A stretch of DNA of 64,000 bases from a phage. Under the pieces are notes generated by a model. The model saw only the letters and a list, made by a program, of their open reading frames with translations, was not told the DNA's origin and did not search any database. This document shows, piece after piece, positions 690 to 48,053 of the stretch. How positions within the stretch are numbered: position 1 is the first letter of the stretch; each line of letters starts with the position of its first letter. Location: the sequence record PZ386974.1. One strand, written 5' to 3'. The translations under genes and the position numbers were made by a program.

Positions 690-1322
690 TCACAGTACGT
701 TAGTTACAAGGGTAATGATTTCTTTGGACACATTAGGGAAGTCAATGTAAGTATATTTACCACCGATCTTAATCTTAACATCATTTTCAAGAGAAGTAAA
801 CAGCTTTGATTCAGTTTCTGACATGTTGTATGCAAAGATTCTAAGAGAACCATCTCGACGAATTTCGATCTGACGAATACCTAGAACTCGTTTAGCGAAT
901 CGAACTTCTAAGTTACTACGGTTTTCACCAATTTCTTTAACTTCAACTTTATCTTTAATATTTTCAAAAACAAAGTTTGCTAATTCATGCATTTCAGGAG
1001 TAACTCCACGTGCTTTTCTAGTGTTACGTTTCTGAAGAAGTTCTGGAGCATTTTCTTGGGCAAAGAGGTCTGCAGCTTTTTGGATAATATCCATTGCTTC
1101 GCCTGTTGCTACAAGTCCATCACCGGATTTTTCGACTAAACCTTTCTTAATCAATACACCAATGTTAGAGTTAACAACCGATGCATTGTATTCTGCTTCC
1201 AGAGCTTCACGGACATTGGCAGCAGTGGTGAAGTTGTTCTTAATGATATAAACCATTATTGCAGCAGTTTTTTCATTCAGAGCGTTTTCAGAAGCTTTGA
1301 TGATGTAAGTAACTTTAGACAT
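690..1322 (-). CDS. motA: MotA-like middle transcription activator
   Basis: 210 aa; N-terminus MSKVTYIIKAS matches recalled T4 MotA; located beside gene 52 as in T4; GGAGA SD. Confidence 0.75.
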   Translation of the reverse strand: MSKVTYIIKASENALNEKTAAIMVYIIKNNFTTAANVREALEAEYNASVVNSNIGVLIKKGLVEKSGDGLVATGEAMDIIQKAADLFAQENAPELLQKRNTRKARGVTPEMHELANFVFENIKDKVEVKEIGENRSNLEVRFAKRVLGIRQIEIRRDGSLRIFAYNMSETESKLFTSLENDVKIKIGGKYTYIDFPNVSKEIITLVTNVL

Positions 1323-3497: not shown

Positions 3498-3944
3498 TTA
3501 GTAACTCTGCAGAATGAATTTGAAATTATCTGCCAGAAGACGGTTCATTTCAGTGAGTGTTTGATATTCTGATGTATGGTTGCGAGTGAATGCCAGAGCC
3601 AATTGTCCTTTACCATAACCAGTAGTCAGTGGTTTCATGTTCTTAGCTGCAACAAAGATTACATCATATTCAATATTGTTAGTGCCCATGGTACGGGCTA
3701 GTTGCGAACGGCCTTGACGAATGTGAGAAAGAATTGCATCCAACCCTTGTTTAGAACGTTGACGTCCTACAAAGAATCGTGCTGCTACTTGTCGCCAATC
3801 AGATGAACCTTTAACAAAGAAGTAAAAACCTTCGCGAGAACGAAACTCTTTAGAAACTTCAGAACCGTATTCGCCATTACGAACTACTGCAACAACTTCA
3901 CCACCAACTGCCAGAAGGTCTTTACGAGTTAAATATTTGGACAT
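3498..3944 (-). CDS. ndd: possible Ndd nucleoid-disruption protein (148 aa)
   Basis: Size and position (clockwise of 52) match T4 ndd; ATG with GAGGAA SD; identity not verified by alignment. Confidence 0.4.
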
Positions 3945-3988
3945 GCTAATTTCCTCAATTGATTAATGTTTTTGTAATCCATGAGAGC

Positions 3989-4016
3989 ATTATACTCTGC
4001 TCTCAAGAGTTTGTAC
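3989..4016 (-). promoter_or_regulatory. early-type promoter (GTACAA-N-TATAAT) with inverted repeat GAGAGCA/TGCTCTC around -10
   Basis: Upstream of ndd-like ORF. Confidence 0.45.
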
Positions 4017-4020
4017 AATT

Positions 4021-4221
4021 TTATTCGGCTATATCAGAACGTTCAAAAAGCTCTTCAACAGTTAAACATTCAGTGTCATCTTCAATAAAGAATCGAGTCC
4101 AACACGTTGGGGCGATACAGTTATGAGTTTGTCCGGCGATAGAAGCTACACGAATAAGCTGCTGACCATTATTCAGAACAAATTTTTCACCAATTTCAAC
4201 ATCTTTAAAAAGCTTAGCCAT
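4021..4221 (-). CDS. hypothetical protein (66 aa)
   Basis: ATG with GAGGAA SD; own early promoter upstream. Confidence 0.45.
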   Translation of the reverse strand: MAKLFKDVEIGEKFVLNNGQQLIRVASIAGQTHNCIAPTCWTRFFIEDDTECLTVEELFERSDIAE

Positions 4222-4249
4222 TTTGTGTTCCTCGTGTTTCAGTAGGACT

Positions 4250-4279
4250 ACTATACCATAATCCTACCTTGATGTAAAC
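4250..4279 (-). promoter_or_regulatory. early-type promoter cassette (GTTTAC-N18-TATAGT), IR TAGGA.TA
   Basis: Upstream of 66-aa ORF. Confidence 0.45.
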
Positions 4280-4471
4280 AATTAAATTACATTAAAATAT
4301 GTTAAAGCCAACCATGTTCCAGTGAACGAACATGCGATGTAAAAACCCGTATCACAAATTGTTCTTAGTACAATAAGAAGTGCATTTTTCATAAGTACCT
4401 CAATACAATTGAAAATATTATACAAATCATAGGGATACTAAGCAACCATATTCCGATCCACATTTTAGAGC

Positions 4472-9088: not shown

Positions 9089-10189
9089 TTACGCTGTGAA
9101 GATTTTATCCCACATCGCAACAACTGCATCTCGATTATACTTCTTCCATACTGCTTCAGCACGTTTAACTCGAGCTTCGTATGTGTCAGTGAATTCTAAT
9201 ACAGCTTTTGTGTAAAGCGCAACTACTTCTTTCTTAGGAGTAGAGGAATCAATTTCTACACGCACAGTATCTGGGTCATATTCGAATGTCGCGTGCGGAT
9301 AATCCTTAAAAACTAACTGGATTACAGGGACACCTTTAGAGATGGCTTCAATAGAACTATTCTCTACCGTACCTGTGTCAGGACACGTATTAATAAGTGC
9401 TTTAGCTGTTTTAAGACGTTCCATAATTTCACTGTGTGGAGCATCAATAATAACAGGATATTTAGCCGGTGGTGCCCATTTACTAGGACAGTATCCTACA
9501 CCATTTTCGCCTAGTGCTTTAATCGCTTCAAGAGCAACATCAGTACGACGCATTTTAGTGTCATAACGTTGTGCACTAATAATCAGATCAGTCGCCGGAA
9601 GAACTTCAGGTTTCTCATTCAAACAAATAACCGGATAATCTTCGGCTTCAAACAACGGATTTGCTCGCCAATAATCATAATCAATTTTGTCAGTCAGACC
9701 CGAAGTCATATAACAATATTTACGTTCAAATTCACGGAAGGCTTTAGTAGGAGCATAACTCTTACCACCATTCTTATGAATTTGAATAGTCTGGTCCCAA
9801 ATTTGAACAATGCCACGAGATACCGGTTCAAATGGTGTTGCCATAAAATTCTTATGAACTTTAGAGAGACCTGCGTCTTTAATTGCCTGAACGGTTAGTT
9901 TGGTCGGTTCCATTGTAACAACGAAATCATACTCATTAATGCCGGCTAGTTCAACAATCTTACGAGCCATAGTATAACTCATACCTAGACTGAATTTAGT
10001 CAGATGACCAACAGGATGATGATTAACTTTCCAATCACCAAATGTGTCATTATCAAAACCGATATAATCAATATCGGCACCGATGGACACAAGATATTTC
10101 AACACATTTAAATGTACTGCTTCAAGACCACCTTGTACACGTTCTGGGTTAAATGGGACTGCGCGAGATGGGATAAACATAACTTTCAT
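9089..10189 (-). CDS. GT-B fold glycosyltransferase, candidate hmC-DNA pentosyl(arabinosyl)transferase
   Basis: 366 aa; C-terminal segment TGTVENSSIEAISKGVPVI resembles GT4-type donor-binding motif; sits where T4 has gene 60/mobA. Confidence 0.6.
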   Translation of the reverse strand: MKVMFIPSRAVPFNPERVQGGLEAVHLNVLKYLVSIGADIDYIGFDNDTFGDWKVNHHPVGHLTKFSLGMSYTMARKIVELAGINEYDFVVTMEPTKLTVQAIKDAGLSKVHKNFMATPFEPVSRGIVQIWDQTIQIHKNGGKSYAPTKAFREFERKYCYMTSGLTDKIDYDYWRANPLFEAEDYPVICLNEKPEVLPATDLIISAQRYDTKMRRTDVALEAIKALGENGVGYCPSKWAPPAKYPVIIDAPHSEIMERLKTAKALINTCPDTGTVENSSIEAISKGVPVIQLVFKDYPHATFEYDPDTVRVEIDSSTPKKEVVALYTKAVLEFTDTYEARVKRAEAVWKKYNRDAVVAMWDKIFTA

Positions 10190-30224: not shown

Positions 30225-30773
30225 TTAACGAGCCCATTTGATGATTTCTGTAATCAAACCATTACGTTCGCTTGCATTAAATCCTATAACTTTGTTAGCA
30301 CCATCATGATTAAGTAATTGATACGTTTGGATTTTGTTATGAATTGCAAACTCTTCAAAATGTGAAATGACTGTATTAAAACCGAATGAAGACAAAGTAA
30401 TAAGGTCGTCTTCAAAACTTTCAGTCATTTCGTTACGTGTTAAAATAATTGTGAACACATCATGGTTTTGGCAAAGACGAACATAATCCTGTTCATAAAC
30501 ATCAAGAACCGAGTCCGCATCTTGTCGAATACGTCCATAAACCCAGTTACTAATATATCCACGGTCTAACAGATAAATCTTAGTAGGGTCTAAATAATTC
30601 AACATCGTTTCGAAACAGCCAACTTCATTTCGAGACTTAACATCGAAACGTCCATCAACCGTTCGTTTAGGGAAATCAATCTTTACATATCTTTCACTAA
30701 TTTCCATTATGTCATTAATGAAAGTTGTTTTACCAGCATTATCCGGGCCATCTACTAAAATAATTTTAGCCAT
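30225..30773 (-). CDS. P-loop kinase-like protein (182 aa)
   Basis: Walker A GPDNAGKTT near N-terminus; small nucleotide/sugar kinase-like size. Confidence 0.5.
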   Translation of the reverse strand: MAKIILVDGPDNAGKTTFINDIMEISERYVKIDFPKRTVDGRFDVKSRNEVGCFETMLNYLDPTKIYLLDRGYISNWVYGRIRQDADSVLDVYEQDYVRLCQNHDVFTIILTRNEMTESFEDDLITLSSFGFNTVISHFEEFAIHNKIQTYQLLNHDGANKVIGFNASERNGLITEIIKWAR

Positions 30774-30774
30774 T

Positions 30775-31674
30775 TTATTCCTCGATTACGACATCTTCGT
30801 ATTTAGGTATATTATACGGCGAAGAAATTAAAGCATTAAAGTAGATGAACTCACCAAGACCTGGATGGAATACTTCTTCAGGATTTTCGAAATATTGAAT
30901 CTTCGGACGTCCTTTAAGAATTTGATAGTACTCAGTTTTAGTTGGTTTAAAAATTCGAATCAGCGCTTCTTCAGGATACTTATTTCTGTCGAAGCTATTA
31001 TTTGGATCGGTTATATAAAGCGGTTGGCCTAATTGAATTGCACATTCAACCACTTGTTCAAAACGATAGCATGGGTCACTAATTCGAAATGGATGAAAAA
31101 TACCATCTAGATGAATAGGAGCCAAATCACCTACAAGACGCTGCATGATGGAAGGACGTATAACTTTCTGCGTTACGATAATCTTATTACCATCTGCACC
31201 TGCGTTAACCAGCACTTCTTTTTGACGTTCATTCAACACAGTAGTTTGAAGTGAACGATTAACAGACAACATGTCGGTTTTTAAGAATTCATCAATATAA
31301 AAACGTGGTTTATTAGGGTCTGCAGTGATATTGAAATTGAATTCTACGTCAAAAGCGCCATCATATCCAGTGATATCTGTGATTAGAAAATCACAATCAT
31401 AATAAGCAATTAATGAATCAACCACAAATTCATTTTCAGACCAGAAATATTTACGAGTGTTATACGCGTTATCTTTATACCATAATGGAACAAACTTAAA
31501 TTCTGGGAAAAGACGTTCACATTCTTTAATATCAGATGCATTACGTGGATATGTAATCACATCGCCTGGATTAGCACGGTGCAAATGAAGTTGGAAGTTG
31601 CCATCCTTAAGGATAGCATACTGTCCAGTTTCATAAGACCGCATACTCAAAATAGGTACGCGGAAAATAGCCAT
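30775..31674 (-). CDS. hypothetical protein in beta-glucosyltransferase position (299 aa)
   Basis: Occupies T4 beta-gt locus between 42 and uvsX; no recognisable motif; TAATG-coupled to gene 42. Confidence 0.45.
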   Translation of the reverse strand: MAIFRVPILSMRSYETGQYAILKDGNFQLHLHRANPGDVITYPRNASDIKECERLFPEFKFVPLWYKDNAYNTRKYFWSENEFVVDSLIAYYDCDFLITDITGYDGAFDVEFNFNITADPNKPRFYIDEFLKTDMLSVNRSLQTTVLNERQKEVLVNAGADGNKIIVTQKVIRPSIMQRLVGDLAPIHLDGIFHPFRISDPCYRFEQVVECAIQLGQPLYITDPNNSFDRNKYPEEALIRIFKPTKTEYYQILKGRPKIQYFENPEEVFHPGLGEFIYFNALISSPYNIPKYEDVVIEE

Positions 31675-32390
31675 TAGTCAAGAAATCCTTTAACATAATC
31701 AAAATCACGTTCAAACACATGGGCACTTACCATGGTATGAGTATAATCACCAACTTCTACACCACATTCGTTAGCGATATAATGAAGTAATTTTCCTTGG
31801 AGATAAAAATCCAACTGCATAACAACAGCACAGTTCTGAGAACGCATATGACAGTGGGTATAAAGCTTACCATCGCGAATATAATAAGTCACTGAGTCAG
31901 TACATGGATATTCAAGCGTTTCGTCCGAATCAAGCAAAGCCTGATCAGAACTTTCTAGAATTTGGAACACAACTCTTCGAGAGTTAGGCTTCTCTTTAAG
32001 TTCTTTTAGAAGAGCCGGTAATTGGGCCGCAATGCGAGGACCATAGAAAGTGTTGAAGTTCGCAGGCAAAGCATCTGATTTTGGTTTAGAAATAAATTTA
32101 GCGACATTAGGATATGCTTTAAACGCTTCTTCTGCATCAGTACCACCAGAAATCATAAACTTCCAGAAGTCTTCGGCATATTCATAAGAGATGCGGTTAA
32201 TACGTGGGTCGGTCATTTTGAATGATGATGGATTGTCAACAACTACTGTCATGGACCCGATTTCATTACAACGTCCAATACGAGAATTAGTTACGAATTC
32301 GGGGTTTTCTAAAATTTCACGATTGACTGCTTTAAATGCGGTTTGAAAATCTGCGGCTTTGATATATTTCATTGTGTTATGTTTTCCCAT
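31674..32390 (-). CDS. 42: dCMP hydroxymethylase (thymidylate synthase family)
   Basis: 238 aa; active-site region YPCTDSVTYYIRDGKLYTHCHMRSQN parallels TS/gp42 PC(H)...YQRSxD core. Confidence 0.65.
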   Translation of the reverse strand: MGKHNTMKYIKAADFQTAFKAVNREILENPEFVTNSRIGRCNEIGSMTVVVDNPSSFKMTDPRINRISYEYAEDFWKFMISGGTDAEEAFKAYPNVAKFISKPKSDALPANFNTFYGPRIAAQLPALLKELKEKPNSRRVVFQILESSDQALLDSDETLEYPCTDSVTYYIRDGKLYTHCHMRSQNCAVVMQLDFYLQGKLLHYIANECGVEVGDYTHTMVSAHVFERDFDYVKGFLD

Positions 32391-36141: not shown

Positions 36142-36773
36142 TGTTCGCCTCGTAACATGGCACCTAGTGCACCGCCTGGATGGAACTTAAGGAAGTCATT
36201 AGAGGTAAATCCACGCTCAGACGAAAGGTTGATAGCGAACGTATCGATAAGCGCTAACAACAATGTAGTGGACATAGTCGGAGCTAAAGAGTTCTCGTCA
36301 ACTTCTACCGCGATACCGGTACAGAACGTATAATCAAAAAGAGCTTCGTATTCTTGTGGAATGTCAGGGTTACAATGTAACAGAATCTGTTTAACCTGAG
36401 GACGAATCATACGAAGATGTTTAGCAACACCTATCATTTCTTCAGTCTTACCAGAACGACTGATGTGAACTAATACATCATTAGGTGCAATAAATCCTGC
36501 GTCACCATGAGAATAATGCCCGGTGTTCAAGTACATACTCGGGATACCGAGTGAAGCAAATGTCTCAGAAGCTTTAGTTGCAATATTAGCATTCTTACCA
36601 ACACCTGTAATAATTACTCGGCTTTCATAATTACTAAGTCCTGGGCGTCGAAGAGTTTCTAGAATAGCATTATAACGAGCAGGGTTTTGACTAATTACTT
36701 TGGCCATAGCGGCCAAAGAAGAAGCTTGTTTTATGATTGCGTCAATAGCGATAGTAATAGGAGTAGTTTTCAT
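36138..36773 (-). CDS. SIS-domain sugar-phosphate isomerase (KdsD/GutQ-like arabinose-5-phosphate isomerase type)
   Basis: 211 aa; GVGKNANIA...HGDAG...SRSGKTEE...LAPTMSTT match SIS/API motifs. Confidence 0.7.
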   Translation of the reverse strand: MKTTPITIAIDAIIKQASSLAAMAKVISQNPARYNAILETLRRPGLSNYESRVIITGVGKNANIATKASETFASLGIPSMYLNTGHYSHGDAGFIAPNDVLVHISRSGKTEEMIGVAKHLRMIRPQVKQILLHCNPDIPQEYEALFDYTFCTGIAVEVDENSLAPTMSTTLLLALIDTFAINLSSERGFTSNDFLKFHPGGALGAMLRGEQ

Positions 36774-36813: not shown

Positions 36814-39525
36814 TCAAAAATCGAACATATCGAACAGAGATGCTTTCTTCTCGTAATCGAGTTTCGCTGCTGATGTGAATCCTTCAAGTGGTTTAATAAA
36901 TGTCTTCTCAAGGAGAACAGTGTAGTCCATCCAATGAAGTACGTCGTCTTTAATTAAATCTGTGATTTCAGTACCAGAAGGCCATGCGATACATTTATCA
37001 CCGAATGGGTTTCCTTCACGTAAAGGCAGAACATATACTTTTTCACCTTCTACAACTTGCGGCGCATCGATATTACCTTTGATAGCCCGGTTATACGTCA
37101 GAATTCCACGAATATGGAACGGGCATTTGGGACCAGGGAATCCACCGACGTCATATTTAGCAATGTTATTCGCAGAAGATACCGACGCGATGCTAATATA
37201 ATTCAATTGACGGAATTCTTTTTCAAACTCTTTAAAATATTCTTGTAATGATTCTTCACCTTCTTGAAGCATACGACGAATACATTCCTTAAGAGCTTTC
37301 TGTACTGCTTTAGGGGTCGAAGATTTCTGAGTCTCTAGACCCATGATTTTGAGTTTAGGCTCAGCGTATCTGGTTCCTTCCATATCCCACACGTTTAATG
37401 CATAACGTTTCTTACCAGTCCAAAATCCGCCAATACCTTTAGAACCAAGCGGAGGCCCAGCGATAGCTTCTCGGTCCATGAACATTAAGTGTTGTTTATT
37501 GTTCATGTATTCACACATTTCACGGAAACCTCTATCAATAGCAGGTTCCATACGTTCACGTGCAAACTTATCTAAGAAGTCTACCCAATGGTTGGTATCA
37601 CGGAATTTAGATTCACCAACCTTATCGATAATTTTATCAGCAGATACGTAAATAGAGTCTGTATCACCATAAAGAACGAAAGCTTCACCTTCTGTACCAC
37701 AAACTTCATTCAGATATTCATTAACTTTACGTTCAATCCACTGTAAAGCCATTTGCCCGAATGTTGTGATTGCAGTAGCATTACGCAAATCATAATAACG
37801 GAACCAAACGTTGCCAAGTGCACCATAAAGTGAGTTGATGAGCAATTTACGGTTAATTTGTGCAGTCATACCTGCAACTTCAGTACGTTGAGCTCTAAAC
37901 AACATTTCGTTAAGAGATTTAGCAGACAACTTTTTAATCTTTTCTTTAATCTCATCACTGAAGTCGAAACGATAATCAACATCTAATGGTTCGTCAACAG
38001 AAAGATTAGGATTATGCAATGCCTCTTTAATTATTTCACCATTGCGTTGAGCCGCAAGCATATAACCTTTGTGTTCTTTACGTTGATTAAAGACTTTAGT
38101 GATTTCAGTTGGAACAACACCGTCACGGTCTTTATAATACATCATGCCGTTAGGAGAACAACTGTACACATCAGAAGGACGTTCAGCAACAGCGTTAATA
38201 TAATCATGCAATGGAGCTACTTTAAACGTTCCTGCTATTGTTTCTGGGCTAATATTCACTTGGCGAATAATACTTGGATACAGAGATGTGAGGTCGAAGC
38301 TCATCACATATTTGTATCGATTTGGAATAGGTTCCTTAACAAAAGCGCCAGGATAAGGTTGAACCGGATGAGAACGACCTTGTGGAATCACCTTGTTCTG
38401 CTCTTTAAGGCTATTAAAAATAATAGCATCCCATGTTTTAATTGGGCTAAACACAGATTGAATCTGTATCTTAGCATAATAACCCATGTCCAAGCTCAAG
38501 TTAATGAACTGACGTTTACCATCAATTTGCAATACACGATACACGTCGATAATGTTATAAGAAATATATCGTTGGTGATTGCTTTCACGAAGCTTAGAAA
38601 TAGGGCCGTCATATTTCAGTTTACCAACGTTCAATTCAAATTCTGAAATGTAATCCAGAGAATACGACGGTTGATTGGTAAAAGAGAATTTTTTGTAAAG
38701 GTCAATGTAATCAAGAACAGAGATACCGAACAATGTAATGATTTCACGAGAACCATACATGTTTTCGATAACTTTAACACGAGTTTTACGATGTGGTGAT
38801 AAACGTTTCGCAGTAGATTCGCCAAAAATATTCTTGATTCGGTTATACACATATGGAATATCAAATGACTCAACGTTCCATCCAGTCAAAATGACAGGAG
38901 TTTTCTGTTGCCAGAAGTTGAGATATTCCATCAACAATTCTTTTTCATTATCGAACGGCATATAAATGATTTTATCGATAATTTCGGATGGAACTTCATC
39001 ACCACCTTGTTCTTGAAGCTTAGCCGCAATTTCGATAGACCATTCTTCCACATTACCGTATGGAGAATTCAAAAGGTCAAATACGTAGAACCTGTCGTCA
39101 ATTGAGTCATAATGGGTGATAGCATCAATCGGATGTTTTGCTTGTGACGGCTCAGGGAACCCGTCCGGAGATGTTACTTCGATGTCGAAGTTAGCCACAC
39201 GAATTTTTGTATGGTCGTATTTGATTTCATAGTTATAAGTGTCAGACAAATACGCCAATTTGAAATCGTCCATGCCAAGTGCTTCAAGTCCGATATCTTC
39301 CATGCGTTTAATCCATTGGGAGGCATCACGCATATTAGCGAACAACTTACGAGTACACGGCTTACCGTAGATATCGAAATATTTCGTAGCCTGACTTTCT
39401 GGACAATGAGCAAACAGTGATGGTTTATATTCTACTTCACGAGTACGTTCACGGCCATTAGAATCGATGTAACGTTCAAAAATTGAATCACCAATCTGTT
39501 CAACCGTTAAGTAAAATTCTTTCAT
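36814..39525 (-). CDS. 43: DNA polymerase (family B)
   Basis: 903 aa; sequence appears essentially identical to RB69 gp43 as recalled (MKEFYLTVEQIGDSIFERYIDSNGRER..., YGDTDS). Confidence 0.95.
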   Translation of the reverse strand: MKEFYLTVEQIGDSIFERYIDSNGRERTREVEYKPSLFAHCPESQATKYFDIYGKPCTRKLFANMRDASQWIKRMEDIGLEALGMDDFKLAYLSDTYNYEIKYDHTKIRVANFDIEVTSPDGFPEPSQAKHPIDAITHYDSIDDRFYVFDLLNSPYGNVEEWSIEIAAKLQEQGGDEVPSEIIDKIIYMPFDNEKELLMEYLNFWQQKTPVILTGWNVESFDIPYVYNRIKNIFGESTAKRLSPHRKTRVKVIENMYGSREIITLFGISVLDYIDLYKKFSFTNQPSYSLDYISEFELNVGKLKYDGPISKLRESNHQRYISYNIIDVYRVLQIDGKRQFINLSLDMGYYAKIQIQSVFSPIKTWDAIIFNSLKEQNKVIPQGRSHPVQPYPGAFVKEPIPNRYKYVMSFDLTSLYPSIIRQVNISPETIAGTFKVAPLHDYINAVAERPSDVYSCSPNGMMYYKDRDGVVPTEITKVFNQRKEHKGYMLAAQRNGEIIKEALHNPNLSVDEPLDVDYRFDFSDEIKEKIKKLSAKSLNEMLFRAQRTEVAGMTAQINRKLLINSLYGALGNVWFRYYDLRNATAITTFGQMALQWIERKVNEYLNEVCGTEGEAFVLYGDTDSIYVSADKIIDKVGESKFRDTNHWVDFLDKFARERMEPAIDRGFREMCEYMNNKQHLMFMDREAIAGPPLGSKGIGGFWTGKKRYALNVWDMEGTRYAEPKLKIMGLETQKSSTPKAVQKALKECIRRMLQEGEESLQEYFKEFEKEFRQLNYISIASVSSANNIAKYDVGGFPGPKCPFHIRGILTYNRAIKGNIDAPQVVEGEKVYVLPLREGNPFGDKCIAWPSGTEITDLIKDDVLHWMDYTVLLEKTFIKPLEGFTSAAKLDYEKKASLFDMFDF

Positions 39526-39977: not shown

Positions 39978-40541
39978 TTACCATTCCAATGCTAATTTTT
40001 TAAATTGTTTTTGTTCTTTCACATTTTTTGTAACTTCTTTGAGAAACTCATCAGTGACCATGGCCTTCAGTTCTTTAAGGACTATTGGCAACTTGTTATT
40101 TTTTTCAAGGAGCCGCTTATACTCAGTAGCATCATTCATGTTGATTGTGTAACGTTTCATCAACAGTTTGATAACTAGTAACTCTGAAGTGTCTTCGACT
40201 AGTTTAGCCCATTTAGAGAATCGACGACCACGCGGAATTGCCGCCATCATATAGTTGAAGTGCGCTTCATCACTTAATTCAGAACCGACTAAGTTCATCA
40301 TGTAAACAGCTGGCATACATTCTGGAAACTGGGATAATGAGTTCTCAACCATAAATTTTGAGTAGTCAACCTGAGCAATTGACATAGGTTTCTTTTCATT
40401 AATAGCATTAATGATTTTAAAGAATTCATTCTCAGGTTTTTCTTTAAACATATCAGCACATTTTTGAATCGCATCAGCGTCATTAGACTTCCATGCAATT
40501 TGGTGCTCGTTAAGCCGGACGTCATCATCGAATAAGTTCAT
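39978..40541 (-). CDS. 62: clamp loader small subunit
   Basis: 187 aa; matches recalled T4 gp62 (…[15 protein letters not shown]). Confidence 0.85.
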
Positions 40542-44915: not shown

Positions 44916-45150
44916 CCTCAATACACGCTTCAGCCATTTTAAGAATAGAGCCAGGAGTATCGTTGTCCATTATATTAAAGCTAAATTCAATAGCCCAGTC
45001 GGTGCAGACATGAACTGCTTTAACTTCATTGCCTTCAACGCGTAATGGCTCAATCCAATACTTGATAGTGTTCTCGAATCCATCATCATCTTTAACGTCA
45101 ATTTCAACTTCAAGGTTGAGTCCAGCATTGTTAAATTCATCTAAAGTCAT
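44893..45150 (-). CDS. hypothetical protein (85 aa; 46.2 position)
   Basis: ATGA-coupled to gene 47. Confidence 0.4.
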   Translation of the reverse strand: MTLDEFNNAGLNLEVEIDVKDDDGFENTIKYWIEPLRVEGNEVKAVHVCTDWAIEFSFNIMDNDTPGSILKMAEACIEDAYNDED

Positions 45151-46166
45151 TGTGTTGCCTCGATATAAAGTTCGTTGGAATATTTGACCAGCGCTTCTCT
45201 GTCTTCGTCTGAGATATCTGGAATCGCGTCAATATATTCTTTAATGATATCTTGAAGTGATTTAATCTCTATTTCCTGGTCGTCATCAGATTCAACACTG
45301 TTATCAACTTTAGAAACCATACGAAGAGAGTGAACTACTTTTTCAAGTTCAGATTCAAACTTAGTCAACTCTGAATCGATTTCTGATACTATAACACGTA
45401 CGGCTAGATTAGTATAATCAGAATAATTGATTTTGCCTTTAAACGGATAAGTGATTCGTCGATGCCATGTTGTTTCATTAGGAATAAATTCCATACGTTC
45501 AACATCAGTGTCAAATACCCAGAATCCTCGAGGGTCGTTCTCATCGCCTGCAGTAAGGGTCCATGGTGTCCCAATATATTTGACGTTAGCAGCTTCAGAG
45601 ATTGTGTGGAAGTGGCCGGACCAGACTTGTTTATAGGTCTTTAAGAAATCAGGTTCAAGCCCATGAGACTTCATTCCTTTATAGAAATAAAAGCCATTCA
45701 GTTCCCAGTGCCCAACACAATACGCTGCGGAAGAAGTCTTGATGTGCTCTAAGATTTCACCTGTATTTTCTTCACACATCCATGGAACGATATCAATCAG
45801 ACATCCGTCAAAATCTACAGTAGTTGGATGTTCATAAATAGTAAAGTTTTCAAATTGAGTTAACAATTCAGAAACAGTGTTAGGTGTTATTGTATTCTTA
45901 AACGCCATGTCATGGTTTCCTATCGTGACATGAACGTGAATGCCTGCTTTAGAAATCATATCAACGATTTCACGATTGAATTCCATTGTACGATGTGTTA
46001 TTGCTTTACGGACGTCAAACCAATCACCGTACTGAATCCAAGTTTTAATCCCGTGTTTCTTAGAGTATTCAATTGCTTGTCGAATACCATCACGTTGAAT
46101 ATCTTGAACCCATGGGTCGTCTTGTTTGACTCCGATATGGAAGTCGCCTAAGTGCAAAATTTTCAT
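45147..46166 (-). CDS. 47: recombination endonuclease subunit (SbcD/Mre11-like)
   Basis: 339 aa; phosphoesterase motifs (LHLGDFH, GNHD); matches T4 gp47. Confidence 0.9.
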   Translation of the reverse strand: MKILHLGDFHIGVKQDDPWVQDIQRDGIRQAIEYSKKHGIKTWIQYGDWFDVRKAITHRTMEFNREIVDMISKAGIHVHVTIGNHDMAFKNTITPNTVSELLTQFENFTIYEHPTTVDFDGCLIDIVPWMCEENTGEILEHIKTSSAAYCVGHWELNGFYFYKGMKSHGLEPDFLKTYKQVWSGHFHTISEAANVKYIGTPWTLTAGDENDPRGFWVFDTDVERMEFIPNETTWHRRITYPFKGKINYSDYTNLAVRVIVSEIDSELTKFESELEKVVHSLRMVSKVDNSVESDDDQEIEIKSLQDIIKEYIDAIPDISDEDREALVKYSNELYIEATQ

Positions 46167-46212
46167 ATTATTTCCTCATTAGTTAATTCATTTTATCATC
46201 CGTTTATAAAGC

Positions 46213-46236
46213 AAAAAAGGAACTCCGAAGAGTTCC
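46213..46236 (-). terminator. intrinsic terminator, UUCG-tetraloop hairpin GGAACTC/GAGTTCC plus U6
   Basis: Upstream of gene 47. Confidence 0.55.
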
Positions 46237-46409
46237 TATCCACATAATACACCGTACAGAGGCTCATTTGAACTTTTAAATCGAATGGGCTTGTACGTAA
46301 TAGTTCCTTCGGCTTTAGCTTTATCATAAGACTCTTTAAAACGTCTCATTCTTTCTGCTTTGCCTTTACGGATTTTATCGAAATTTTCAGAAGTCGGGAT
46401 GTTCGTCAT
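46236..46409 (-). CDS. hypothetical basic protein (57 aa), below track threshold
   Basis: ATG with GAGGTG SD; stop overlaps UUCG-loop terminator. Confidence 0.3.
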   Translation of the reverse strand: MTNIPTSENFDKIRKGKAERMRRFKESYDKAKAEGTITYKPIRFKSSNEPLYGVLCG

Positions 46410-46448
46410 GCATAAGCACCTCTCAGAAAATGCCTAAATCAATTTCTC

Positions 46449-46655
46449 TCATCGTTTCCACCATTTCTTAACTTGAAATGAATCGACCCACACGAGTTGT
46501 TTTGGGTCTGCCTTTACAATAGGCGGACAAATTTCTGTAATAGAACCGTCGTGATATTCCTTTTCAGAAATTTTAACACAAAGAGGACCTCCCAATTTAA
46601 GGGTGAACCCTGCGTTCAGCTTCAGACGTTTAAACTTTGTTTGAACTAGCGCCAT
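46449..46655 (-). CDS. hypothetical protein (68 aa)
   Basis: Track start is TTG; first ATG at 46655. Confidence 0.35.
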   Translation of the reverse strand: MALVQTKFKRLKLNAGFTLKLGGPLCVKISEKEYHDGSITEICPPIVKADPKQLVWVDSFQVKKWWKR

Positions 46656-46953
46656 TAATGATGTCCTCAATAGCCTGACGAGTAGTAACCCACTGGATTT
46701 TAATTAACTTGTCATTGTACGGTTGTCGTAGAATATCCCGAGATTTCTTAATAGCATATTCGTAAGCTTCGAAGTTGTTTTGAATTGCTGCTTCTTGAGC
46801 ATGAGCATAAAGACGGTTTAGTTCAAAACGATTCTTTTTAAGAATCTTTTCGGATTTTTTACGTGCTTCAGCTTCATTTTTCTTTTGGATTTCTTGTAGC
46901 ATTTTAGCTACTGCATCTTCTGCTTCTTTATTTTCAATAATCTCGGTAGTCAT
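46630..46953 (-). CDS. hypothetical protein (107 aa)
   Basis: ATG start. Confidence 0.45.
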   Translation of the reverse strand: MTTEIIENKEAEDAVAKMLQEIQKKNEAEARKKSEKILKKNRFELNRLYAHAQEAAIQNNFEAYEYAIKKSRDILRQPYNDKLIKIQWVTTRQAIEDIINGASSNKV

Positions 46954-46954
46954 A

Positions 46955-47164
46955 TTATCTCATTAAATTAAAATAAAAACGTCCATCCTCTTCAATACAG
47001 AACTCATACTCAACCGGAGTCCCGTTTATTGAAAATGACACGTCATGTGGGTTCAAAGGGTCGATGTCAAAATTAATTTTAAATTCACGACCCAACAGTT
47101 TTACCAAATAAGGGATTGCTTCGTCAAAAGGTTCTTCTAAGTAGTTAGAGATGTCAATTGTCAT
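46955..47164 (-). CDS. hypothetical protein (69 aa)
   Basis: Track ORF overlaps gene 55; trimmed to ATG at 47164 just after gene 55 stop. Confidence 0.4.
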
Positions 47165-47711
47165 CCTCATATAAAAAATCCAAACTAGGCGAATCGCTAA
47201 CAACTTCCTTCTTTTCAGCCCCAGGAGCTTTATAAGCGGATTCTTCATAATGCGTCATTTTATCGTAGATGTCTTGAATAAACGTTTCATCTACCAACGC
47301 TACCATATCATCGTCATGACTGTCATAGACATTATGAACGAAGTAACTATATTTCTTTGCAACTTCCTTACGTTCTTTTTTGATACGTTGGACAAAAGCA
47401 TTAAAACAAGCTCGAGTTATGTATGCATGTGGGTTATTGTACTTAGTTTCGTCGAAATTATGAAGTCCCTTAATAGAGGCTTCAATCCCATCTGCAATCA
47501 TCTCCTGCTTCCAAGACTGGGTATATCCTGAAAAGTTGAAACGTTTGGACAGGCCTTCGGCGATAAGCATAATTGCTAAACCGATGGTATCATTCTGACG
47601 AATAATTTTGTTTGGGTCTTTATTATTTAAGAGCTCCTTTTTCCACTCGATTATAGCGGCGAGAAGCTCTTTATTATTCACATAGTTATTTTTAGGTTTT
47701 TGTTCAGTCAT
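47154..47711 (-). CDS. 55: late-transcription sigma factor
   Basis: Start set to ATG at 47711 giving 185 aa; internal …[48 protein letters not shown] matches recalled T4 gp55. Confidence 0.85.
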
Positions 47712-47783
47712 AAGTACCTCTTGGCTCAATTCATAGGTCTATTATATCATAATATTTAGAGACCTATCTTAAAGCACGAGATA

Positions 47784-48053
47784 CTATCGGAGCAAACAAT
47801 AAGCCTGAAACACTTTTTCCATTAAACGTTTGAACTCATGGATATCGATATAAAACTCAGTAAGACCGGCATTATAAAGAAAATCTAAAAAGTTATCATG
47901 TGTTTCGTTATAGTCGCCTTCGTTTAATTGAGATACATGAGTTTCCCAAAAACCAACACCTTTAACGAATGGAAAATACGTGACTTTCATGAAGTTATCG
48001 ACGTAAAATTCGCCCAGCTTTTCTTCAGTTATACTGATTCGAGTTAATTTCAT
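47784..48053 (-). CDS. hypothetical protein (89 aa)
   Basis: ATG; ATGA-coupled. Confidence 0.45.
   Translation of the reverse strand: MKLTRISITEEKLGEFYVDNFMKVTYFPFVKGVGFWETHVSQLNEGDYNETHDNFLDFLYNAGLTEFYIDIHEFKRLMEKVFQAYCLLR

Follow-up and report, generated by a model that had tools for sequence, protein, structure and literature searches.

What occupies the position of the alpha-glucosyltransferase gene (alpha-gt) in a T-even-type phage that lacks it? In T4, alpha-gt lies between genes 47 and 55. In the window analyzed here, a 64,000-nucleotide stretch of phage DNA (record PZ386974.1), four minus-strand ORFs are placed between these two genes. According to the original prediction, the four ORFs fill the alpha-gt slot with no glycosyltransferase-like protein among them, which would support a DNA modification chemistry different from that of T4. 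We examined what the four ORFs are, where the alpha-gt site lies, and which genes could account for the modification of this DNA.

Layout of the locus

The window belongs to an RB69-like T-even phage of the Mosigvirus type. The locus is 99% identical to that of many sequenced isolates, and 147 records of RB69-like phages carry it as a contiguous unit. Its features are as follows.

45147-46166, minus strand: gene 47, Mre11/SbcD-like recombination nuclease subunit, 339 aa (phrog_100)
46167-46189, minus strand: gene 47 leader, with the Shine-Dalgarno sequence GAGG at 46174-46177
46190-46216, minus strand: predicted MotA-box middle promoter (TTTTGCTTTA, 11 nt, TAAAAT), homologous to T4 PmobB
46212-46237, minus strand: predicted intrinsic terminator (hairpin from 46237 to 46218, 8-bp stem AGGAACUC/GAGUUCCU, UUCG tetraloop, U6)
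46236-46409, minus strand: a-gt.2 orthologue, 57 aa, pI 9.8 (RB69p067)
46449-46655, minus strand: a-gt.3 orthologue, 68 aa from ATG, pI 9.7 (RB69p068)
46630-46953, minus strand: a-gt.4 orthologue, 107 aa, pI 9.1, three helices predicted
46955-47170, minus strand: a-gt.5 orthologue, 71 aa (69 aa from 47164), pI 4.3 (RB69p070)
47154-47711, minus strand: gene 55, late-transcription sigma factor, 185 aa (phrog_234, E = 3.9e-68)
47741-47746, minus strand: gene 55 promoter -10 element TATAAT, homologous to T4 P55

We consider it highly probable (about 0.9) that this is the standard 55/a-gt.5/a-gt.4/a-gt.3/a-gt.2 block of a T-even-type phage, followed by a single terminator/promoter module and an empty alpha-gt site. 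The flanking genes are close to those of T4, with 76% identity to gp47 over its full length and 89-91% identity to gp55. The block is read on one strand in the order 55, a-gt.5, a-gt.4, a-gt.3, a-gt.2, terminator, and T4, RB69, mar005P1, IME08, and KpV477 show the identical order. Around the gene 55 promoter, the alignment with T4 is nearly identical; the start site of T4 P55 is at T4 position 40180 (PMC2988021, Table 1), and its counterpart is presumably active in the window's phage. The five genes overlap or are tightly packed and would be transcribed from the gene 55 promoter, together with read-through from upstream. In T4-like phages, whatever their DNA chemistry, the a-gt.5-a-gt.2 block directly follows gene 55 and precedes the Mre11/Rad50-like genes 47 and 46.

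The four ORFs are orthologues of T4 a-gt.2 to a-gt.5

The original prediction was accurate in describing four short ORFs between genes 47 and 55, of 57, 68, 107, and 69 aa; all lie on the minus strand. Each has a partner in T4. The a-gt.2 product is 76% identical to that of T4 (E = 4.7e-28), with no second T4 partner; the corresponding values are 71% for a-gt.3 (E = 1.5e-33), 58% for a-gt.4 (E = 7e-37), and 47% for the 71-aa form of a-gt.5 (E = 3.6e-17). The pairs hold when tested reciprocally, and in comparison with T4, variation is greatest at third codon positions. Family assignments agree: a-gt.2 belongs to DUF5486 (PF17588; 97.3 bits against a cut-off of 27), a-gt.4 to DUF2654 (PF10849; 96.6 bits, cut-off of 25), and a-gt.5 to DUF5491 (PF17595; 49.4 bits, cut-off of 27). 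No Pfam model matched a-gt.3, which is assigned to phrog_1648 (E = 1.6e-34), its residues 2-68 aligning with positions 1-67 of the 67-position profile. Across the four ORFs, PHROG and Pfam matches have E values of 1e-23 to 1e-37.

The T4 proteins (NP_049675-NP_049678) and RB69p067-RB69p070 share with the window their families, gene order, strand, location directly after gene 55, and overlaps. At their junctions, gene 55 and a-gt.5 share 17 nt, as they do in T4, and a-gt.4 and a-gt.3 share 26 nt. Two differences from T4 concern a-gt.2: its N-terminus is six residues shorter, and a gap of 39 nt separates it from a-gt.3, whereas the two genes overlap in T4. For a-gt.5, a start at 47170 (71 aa) is more likely than one at 47164, because the resulting N-terminus, MRMTIDIS, then lines up with T4 a-gt.5 (MRLTINLS) at its first residue.

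By homology, then, the four ORFs are all real genes, namely orthologues of a-gt.2, a-gt.3, a-gt.4, and a-gt.5 of T4, and they were known before this analysis: the RB69 RefSeq entry names RB69p067-RB69p070 a-gt.2 to a-gt.5, and the genes of mar005P1 are named likewise.

A predicted terminator and middle promoter beside an empty alpha-gt site

The strong UUCG-loop terminator reported previously is borne out by its stem, its U-tract, and its folding energy. The stem begins within the a-gt.2 stop codon. The hairpin folds at -13.9 kcal/mol (z = -4.2), and none of 200 shuffled sequences folded equally well. It has the features of a Rho-independent terminator, that is, a G+C-rich hairpin located 3' of a stop codon and directly followed by a U-tract. 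Hairpins with other stem sequences occupy the same position in T4, IME08, IME523, KpV477, Melville, and Berthold; over the seven phages, all nine modules fold as a tetraloop hairpin at the equivalent place, with differing stems. This terminator probably works in the window's phage as it does in T4, and transcription of the 55-to-a-gt.2 block would end there.

The U-tract runs directly into the MotA box TTTTGCTTTA. Middle promoters dependent on MotA have been defined by the box (a/t)(a/t)(a/t)TGCTTtA located 12 +/- 1 bp from a sigma-70 -10 element (PMC2988021), and the promoter of the window has this structure, with the pattern of box and -10 element matching from 46213 to 46190; transcription is predicted to start near 46183. 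Across the window, we counted 17 occurrences of the MotA-box pattern, where 2.25 would be expected, and the activator is encoded in the window as well:

690-1322, minus strand: motA, middle-promoter activator (Pfam MotA_activ, 133.8 bits; MotCF, 34.6 bits)

In T4, middle promoters have been mapped at 38682 (PmobB) and 36576 (P47) (PMC2988021, Table 1), and both starts fall exactly 6-7 nt downstream of the -10 elements in the two T4 modules, the distance being 6 nt for PmobB. The window promoter aligns with the T4 sequence after a-gt.2, the site of the mapped PmobB; on this alignment, the window module is the match of T4's PmobB promoter, and it probably works in the same manner. T4 has a listed P alpha-gt.4 promoter within a-gt.5; the consensus pattern detected no MotA box of this kind in the window.

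The module resembles T4 PmobB (P alpha-gt.1), P47, and the PeSL/PmSL elements (Arbiol 2010; Comeau 2014) in combining a G+C-rich tetraloop hairpin with a T-run. Further shared features are the MotA box TGCTTTA followed by the -10 element TAAAAT at a spacing of 11-12 nt and a location at a boundary where gene content varies among related phages. PmSL elements were described for vibriophage nt-1 (Comeau 2014), where we did not find the window's locus discussed. As a composite terminator/middle-promoter module of the PmSL type (Comeau et al. 2014), it would restart transcription into genes 47 and 46. We also considered that the window module might be a recombinant of PmobB and P47. Downstream of GCTTTATA, the matching stretches are neither long nor clear enough to show this, and an identical GGATGATAAAAT is present in IME08; thus, the hybrid was discarded.

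The alpha-gt site itself can be placed precisely by aligning the window with T4. After a-gt.2, the two sequences align through the hairpin, TTGCTTTATAAA, and TAAAAT; beyond this point, T4 continues into mobB, while the window continues into the ribosome-binding site of gene 47. The block missing relative to T4 consists of mobB, alpha-gt, and 47.1, and the empty site corresponds to about 12 bases (~46178-46189), bounded by the promoter -10 element on one side and by the Shine-Dalgarno sequence of gene 47 on the other. Therefore, the "alpha-gt slot" of this phage is roughly a dozen bases beside a conserved terminator/promoter module rather than the four ORFs.

Loss or gain of alpha-gt

Two modules bracket mobB and alpha-gt in T4, whereas the window has one. 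In T4, the first module precedes mobB, alpha-gt, and 47.1, and the second, comprising a hairpin and the mapped P47, follows alpha-gt. In Klebsiella phage KpV477, alpha-gt likewise lies between two hairpin/promoter modules. Since alpha-gt is bracketed in both phages, it can be regarded as a cassette bounded by repeated modules, and recombination between the two modules may have removed this cassette from the window's lineage or may never have admitted it.

These two outcomes correspond to different histories. The first, loss of alpha-gt in the Mosigvirus lineage, is the one we favor, with some reservation. Between T4 and KpV477, alpha-gt is 66% identical, and the flanking products gp47 and gp55 are 69% and 76% identical. 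The window is nearer to T4 than KpV477 is (76% for gp47 and about 89-91% for gp55). Loss in the window's lineage is favored because the divergence of alpha-gt resembles that of the flanking gp47 and gp55, which fits vertical descent followed by later loss, a comparison that involves two alpha-gt sequences.

Alternatively, the alpha-gt-free state may be ancestral, and Tequatrovirus and Jiaodavirus may have gained alpha-gt by insertion. This history is the less probable of the two, by a moderate margin. Representatives of Dhakavirus, Kanagawavirus, Gelderlandvirus, and Acinetobacter Lazarusvirus have no alpha-gt at this site, so the two genera may have received it horizontally, and the flanking hairpin/promoter modules could mediate such an insertion (PMC4122927). 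Among the phage records searched, 657 carry alpha-gt, most of them from Tequatrovirus and from Jiaodavirus phages of Klebsiella. Other cargo, homing endonucleases included, enters the site: IME523 carries a lone 47.1 homologue, IME08 a GIY-YIG-like ORF, and Melville a 109-aa ORF. This mosaic in other genera fits repeated exchange rather than one event, which weighs against the favored history. Against an insertion stand the divergence of alpha-gt, which is about that of core genes 47 and 55, and the greater closeness of the window to T4.

The four genes neither replace alpha-gt nor derive from it

One rival reading takes the four ORFs as lineage-specific genes that replaced alpha-gt and are tied to an alternative DNA modification. 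Their position, in the same interval that holds alpha-gt in T4, and the different DNA modification of this phage would suit such a replacement. Yet T4 holds its own copies of all four genes between mobB and gene 55, in the same order and next to an intact alpha-gt, and KpV477 carries all four plus alpha-gt. More broadly, a-gt.2 to a-gt.5 occur in T4-like phages both with and without alpha-gt; tblastn finds a-gt.4 homologues in 1443 phage records covering various hosts and modification types; and these four genes are missing from the gene sets published for arabinosylation. A replacement is therefore very improbable, and the claim that the ORFs fill the T4 slot does not hold. The synteny check with T4 and its relatives that was proposed along with this claim has to draw on T4's full gene list.

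Slightly less probable still is that one or more of the small ORFs are remnants of a degraded glycosyltransferase, the finding that had been named in advance as one that would overturn the original prediction. That the interval encodes no glycosyltransferase-like protein was confirmed by tblastn and Pfam searches. Used as tblastn queries, T4 alpha-gt, beta-gt, mobB, and 47.1 gave no match in the 64-kb window (best E > 0.2); for alpha-gt, the best similarity anywhere in the window had an E value of 1.3. No ORF matched a glycosyltransferase Pfam family at E <= 1. T4 alpha-gt has a GT-B fold (PDB 1XV5), for which we expect a protein of ~350-400 aa with two Rossmann-like domains; the ORFs encode 57-107 aa, the a-gt.4 model consists of three helices with no strands, and the interval has nothing in common with that of T4 alpha-gt beyond the neighbors 47 and 55. 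The one hint of a remnant came from the window's a-gt.5, where 25 residues show local similarity to residues 318-342 of T4 alpha-gt (Smith-Waterman score of 45, reached by 6-10 of 1000 shuffles). Against both alpha-gt proteins, the T4 and KpV477 orthologues of a-gt.5 give scores equal to the mean of the shuffles; as they do not share the match, we rejected it as due to chance. Moreover, T4 and KpV477 each have a-gt.5 beside an intact alpha-gt, and all four ORFs are complete members of their own families.

Finally, although the ORFs are short (57-107 aa) and AT-rich DNA such as this contains many open frames, it is scarcely conceivable that they are chance open frames, given their 47-76% protein identity to T4 with changes mostly at third codon positions, their strong PHROG and Pfam matches, gene overlaps and couplings that agree with T4, and the conservation of a-gt.4 as far as phages of Acinetobacter, Aeromonas, and Vibrio.

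Cytosine arabinosylation genes lie elsewhere in the window

The window contains the RB69-type arabinosyl-cytosine gene set listed in Table 1 of PMC13326640. The gene roles given below for the cluster are from that work, and the role of gp3 as an arabinosyltransferase was proposed in PMC6024577 and PMC13326640.

30225-36773, minus strand: RB69-type cytosine-arabinosylation cluster, between uvsX and gene 43
30225-30773, minus strand: kinase-like gene of the cluster
30775-31674, minus strand: glycosyltransferase, gp46:47 homologue (putative arabinosyltransferase)
31674-32390, minus strand: 5-hydroxy-dCMP synthase, gp48 homologue
Next in the cluster, minus strand: U32-family protein; phosphatase; nucleotidyltransferase/kinase; SIS-domain arabinose-5-phosphate isomerase
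9089-10189, minus strand: second putative arabinosyltransferase, RB69 ORF003c/gp3 homologue, 366 aa

Pfam matches in the cluster include Thymidylat_synt, Peptidase_U32, NTP_transferase, and SIS. The window has 99%-identical orthologues of RB69 gp48 (236 of 238 residues identical), gp46:47 (179/181 in its N-terminal part, gp47), and gp3 (RB69p003; 362/366). The genes for the U32-family protein, phosphatase, nucleotidyltransferase/kinase, and isomerase are also present, in the order of the RB69 pathway. In the window, the gp46:47 glycosyltransferase is a single intact ORF of 299 aa, as opposed to the two parts into which it is divided in the RB69 reference record. The arabinosylation genes lie 10-37 kb from the interval of the four ORFs.

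On the evidence of this gene content, the phage presumably makes arabinosylated 5-hydroxycytosine rather than the T4 modification, a chemistry already published: arabosylated cytosine has been described in RB69 (Thomas et al. 2018, PMC6024577; Lee et al. 2026, PMC13326640). The absence of alpha-gt would be explained because the DNA is decorated with arabinose by genes elsewhere in the window. Hence, the part of the original prediction that concerned a different chemistry stands as far as the missing alpha-gt and the arabinosylation genes are concerned; that the four ORFs themselves bear on it is not supported. The discovery value of the locus is small, as the genes, the absence of glucosyltransferases of the T4 type from RB69-like phages, and the arabinose modification are all annotated or published.

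What the four proteins may do

The proteins had also been flagged as uncharacterized. They are so in function, and neither structure nor profile searches pointed to one; as families, they are the known and annotated a-gt.2 to a-gt.5. Their PHROG families are labeled "unknown function" with the exception of phrog_17354, whose label "head maturation protease" we regard as a mislabel. NCBIfam gave no match for the four proteins. Sequence searches of the PDB returned one chance-level match each for three of the four queries (E = 0.7-0.9) and none for the fourth. Structure prediction relied on shallow alignments, as a large protein database yielded 4-5 cluster representatives per query. The AlphaFold2 model of a-gt.4 reached a pLDDT of 86.9 (6-sequence alignment; other four models, 68-74), and that of a-gt.3 reached 45. 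For the a-gt.4 model, there was no PDB neighbor at E < 1, and the viral library gave only uncharacterized family members. In the full-text literature, a-gt.2 to a-gt.5 appear in a homing-endonuclease table, a conserved-ORF list, and a phage genome paper, with no functional data.

As a low-confidence guess, the four may be small prereplicative accessory proteins. For the three basic proteins (pI 9.1-9.8), the expected partners would be nucleic acid or the transcription/recombination machinery, and for the acidic one (pI 4.3), protein. Their action appears to be independent of the type of DNA modification. In any case, a-gt.2 to a-gt.5, above all the widely conserved a-gt.4, are reasonable targets for functional screens.

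The bracketing of alpha-gt and the varied cargo at its site fit the published model in which cassettes are shuffled at composite promoter/terminator elements. We offer, as a speculation to which we give little weight, two ideas: the a-gt.5-a-gt.2 block might be a module tuning late transcription or the gp46/47 nuclease, and, separately, alpha-gt might be a mobile modification cassette, exchanged via recombination between duplicated terminator/middle-promoter modules.

The four small ORFs have counterparts in T4

The original prediction placed four ORFs (57, 68, 107, and 69 aa) between genes 47 and 55, as our ORF list confirmed, and took them to fill the slot of alpha-gt (a-gt, the DNA alpha-glucosyltransferase gene). 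From gene 47 to gene 55, T4 is annotated with 47.1, a-gt, mobB, a-gt.2, a-gt.3, a-gt.4, and a-gt.5, and each window ORF pairs with a single gene from a-gt.2 to a-gt.5, with the order preserved:

45147–46166, minus strand: gene 47 (ORF list)
46236–46409, minus strand: a-gt.2 ortholog, 57 aa (T4 a-gt.2, 76% identity, E = 4.7e-28; Pfam DUF5486)
46449–46655, minus strand: a-gt.3 ortholog, 68 aa from ATG (T4 a-gt.3, 71%, E = 1.5e-33; phrog_1648)
46630–46953, minus strand: a-gt.4 ortholog, 107 aa (T4 a-gt.4, 58%, E = 7e-37; Pfam DUF2654)
46955–47164 as a 69-aa ORF, minus strand: a-gt.5 ortholog, 71 aa (T4 a-gt.5, 47%, E = 3.6e-17; Pfam DUF5491)
47154–47711, minus strand: gene 55 (ORF list)

The gene order is shared with T4, but the four ORFs do not replace alpha-gt, since T4 itself carries all of them. 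For the last ORF, 47170 (71 aa) is a more probable start than 47164: translation from it lines up with residue 1 of T4 a-gt.5, and most relatives have a 216-nt gene annotated. Between the window and T4, codon position 3 is the most variable in the small ORFs, as expected of coding sequence. RB69p067–070 of the RB69 reference genome are named a-gt.2 to a-gt.5 (“similar to T4”), and the mar005P1 annotation likewise uses these names. The predicted sequence features are real. The positional reading is mistaken, and what is right in the interpretation can be found in earlier literature and in reference annotations.

Residues 9–42 of the a-gt.2 protein (46236–46409, minus strand) also match phrog_17354 (E = 1.9e-14), a 62-position profile whose label, “head maturation protease,” is probably wrong. 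An 89-aa ORF between genes 55 and 55.1 (47784–48053, minus strand) is the counterpart of RB69ORF072c; T4 lacks it at that position, and IME08 annotates a homolog. Like all of these genes, the others treated here lie on the minus strand.

Many sequenced coliphages, including vB_EcoM_KAW3E185, vB_Eco_mar005P1, APCEc01, and O157 typing phages, match the interval 45147–47729 at 99% identity along its entire length, and 147 records contain it contiguously. The records place mar005P1 and RB69 in Mosigvirus. Shigella phage JK45 (NC_054940), also 99% identical at this locus, is recorded as Tequatrovirus; it has the arabinosylation cluster and not alpha-gt or beta-gt, so this placement looks inconsistent with its gene content.

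The alpha-gt site is empty in the window

In an alignment of the minus strand, a-gt.2 to gene 47, with T4, the two sequences agree over the end of a-gt.2, a homologous hairpin (AGGAGC-UUCG-GCUCCU in T4), TTGCTTTATAAA, and TAAAAT, past which T4 enters mobB and the window enters a GAGG ribosome-binding site and the ATG of gene 47. Given this point of divergence, the alignment identifies the block missing from the window as mobB, alpha-gt, and 47.1, about 2.2 kb in T4, and its site as roughly 12 bases (46178–46189). The predicted absence of a glycosyltransferase from 46236–47164 was confirmed, and T4 alpha-gt and beta-gt have no match in the whole 64-kb window.

The possibility, raised with the original prediction, that a small ORF is a glycosyltransferase fragment was rejected. 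Against alpha-gt, three of the four ORFs score no higher than the shuffle mean. The window a-gt.5 gives a 25-residue match, equaled by 6–10 of 1000 shuffles; its T4 and KpV477 orthologs show no such match to either alpha-gt protein, and in both phages a-gt.5 is present alongside intact alpha-gt. On these comparisons, the match is chance.

DNA modification and the function of the small proteins

The proposed departure from T4 modification chemistry is real, but it has been published for RB69 (PMC6024577; PMC13326640). RB69 modified cytosine carries arabose instead of glucose, and alpha-gt and beta-gt homologs are absent (PMC6024577). A 2026 revision gives the base as mono- and di-arabinosylated 5-hydroxycytosine, with gp48 as 5-hydroxy-dCMP synthase and gp46:47 and gp3 as putative arabinosyltransferases (PMC13326640). 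The window encodes homologs of these proteins:

9089–10189: gp3 homolog, putative arabinosyltransferase, 99% identical to RB69
30775–31674, minus strand: gp46:47 homolog, putative arabinosyltransferase, 99% identical to RB69 (gp47 part compared)
31674–32390, minus strand: gp48 homolog, thymidylate-synthase-like, 99% identical to RB69 gp48, at the position of T4 gene 42

Judging by its gp3 and gp46:47 homologs, the window does have glycosyltransferases, 10–37 kb from the four-ORF interval. It also encodes a U32-family protein, a phosphatase, a nucleotidyltransferase/kinase, and a SIS-domain isomerase. T4 gp42 (dCMP hydroxymethylase) is only 24% identical to the gp48 homolog, which in relatives such as JK45 is still annotated “dCMP hydroxymethylase.” The gp46:47 homolog is one intact 299-aa ORF, split into RB69p046 and RB69p047 in the RB69 reference record; PMC13326640 attributes the split to a sequencing error, in line with the intact ORF.

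The small proteins had been called uncharacterized, which is right in that literature searches on a-gt.2 to a-gt.5 returned no functional data, but the genes were already named in the RB69 and mar005P1 annotations. Nolan et al. 2006 listed a-gt.4 among conserved ORFs without function. The four proteins have no significant match in PDB or NCBIfam. The predicted a-gt.4 model, from a shallow alignment (pLDDT 86.9), has three helices (residues 9–57, 61–75, and 81–104) and no informative neighbor in a structure search; the a-gt.3 model is unreliable. Three of the proteins are basic (pI 9.1–9.8) and a-gt.5 is acidic (4.3). Since the genes adjoin 55 under glucosyl-hmC, arabinosyl-5hoC, and other modification gene sets, their context argues for a role independent of DNA modification. 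We would guess, with low confidence and as a reading rather unlikely to be right, that all four are small prereplicative accessory proteins whose targets are nucleic-acid or transcription/recombination machinery.

A predicted terminator and middle promoter separate a-gt.2 from gene 47

The strong UUCG-loop terminator predicted here was borne out: the minus strand from 46237 to 46218 reads AGGAACUC-UUCG-GAGUUCCU, then U6, and folds at −13.9 kcal/mol (z = −4.2; 0 of 200 shuffles as stable). From 46216 to 46190 (minus strand), TTTTGCTTTA, 11 nt, and TAAAAT match the published definition of a MotA-box middle promoter, (a/t)(a/t)(a/t)TGCTTtA with 12 ± 1 bp between it and the −10 element (PMC2988021). 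The T4 sequence has two such modules, one after a-gt.2 and the other after alpha-gt, and the T4 middle promoters PmobB (= P alpha-gt.1; 38682) and P47 (36576) (PMC2988021) start 6 and 7 nt, respectively, past their −10 elements. The noncoding region upstream of mobB contains a middle promoter that drives its transcription (PMC2988022).

The window has 17 instances of the MotA-box pattern TGCTTYA-N10-13-TANNNT (2.25 expected; 0 of 100 shuffles reach 17), and 9 lie on the minus strand, which is the transcribed one (e.g., 12096 to 12072, 21116 to 21092, 30835 to 30811, 36009 to 35985, 43520 to 43496, 46213 to 46190, and 53518 to 53493). For the late-promoter motif TATAAATA, there are just two occurrences (6.7 expected). 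This excess and scarcity fit a prereplicative gene region. MotA is encoded at 690–1322, and the region upstream of gene 55 is nearly identical to the T4 P55 promoter region. Terminator, MotA box, MotA, and P55 together make it likely that one transcription unit runs from P55 through 55, a-gt.5, a-gt.4, a-gt.3, and a-gt.2 to the terminator, after which a new middle-promoter start would serve genes 47 and 46.

Cargo at the site and its history

Past the a-gt.2 position, nearly all phages examined have a tetraloop hairpin, a T-run, and a promoter; in each of nine modules compared across seven phages, the hairpin folds at the same place, though the stems differ in sequence.

Cargo between the module and gene 47
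T4 (Tequatrovirus): mobB, alpha-gt, and 47.1
KpV477 (Jiaodavirus): alpha-gt alone
IME523 (Kanagawavirus): unannotated 47.1 homolog
IME08 (Dhakavirus): unannotated 205-aa ORF, weak GIY-YIG match (E = 0.008)
Melville (Gelderlandvirus): 109-aa ORF; hairpin alone after the a-gt.2 position, MotA-box promoter after the 109-aa ORF
Berthold (Lazarusvirus), RB69, and the window: none

T4 and KpV477 have a second hairpin/promoter module downstream of alpha-gt. The IME08 ORF (MKYITYLTIYSGTKLPPFYIGST...; 3715–4332 of comparison locus L006, NC_014260) may be a Seg-like homing endonuclease, its GIY-YIG match falling below the Pfam cutoff; the annotated IME08 gp47 start looks too long, with the conserved MKILNTGDWH start about 25–28 codons downstream. 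Enterobacter phage IME523 lacks alpha-gt at this site, yet carries the 47.1 homolog (MELFLGYVVLIMAFYTFTRACWIGFFSTPDGLISIILFCIAMTALDI) upstream of gene 47 (3674–3826 of locus L008, MN087708); the label “DNA double-strand break repair protein” on its 45-aa ORF at the a-gt.2 position seems unfounded.

Alpha-gt is 66% identical between T4 and KpV477, close to the values for its neighbors gp47 (69%) and gp55 (76%), and the window is nearer to T4 (gp47, 76%; gp55, 89%) than KpV477 is. These divergences favor an ancestral alpha-gt that was lost in the Mosigvirus lineage. Possibly, the ancestral site was empty and alpha-gt was acquired later, as several other genera likewise lack alpha-gt between a-gt.2 and 47. 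Across the phage collection, 657 records contain alpha-gt and 1443 contain a-gt.4.

As for the probable loss of alpha-gt, the modules bracketing it in T4 and KpV477 are of the “PmSL” type, composite elements proposed as recombination points for cassette shuffling in T4-like genomes (Comeau et al., PMC4122927), and recombination between the two would yield the window's arrangement exactly. The bracketing hairpins (T4, 36576–36620 and 38682–38729; KpV477 locus L011, 3430–3470 and 4700–4750) are nearly identical across distant phages, the second T4 module and the first KpV477 module both having AAAGGGC-TTCG-GCCCTTT. Such a shared hairpin would offer recombination a common target.
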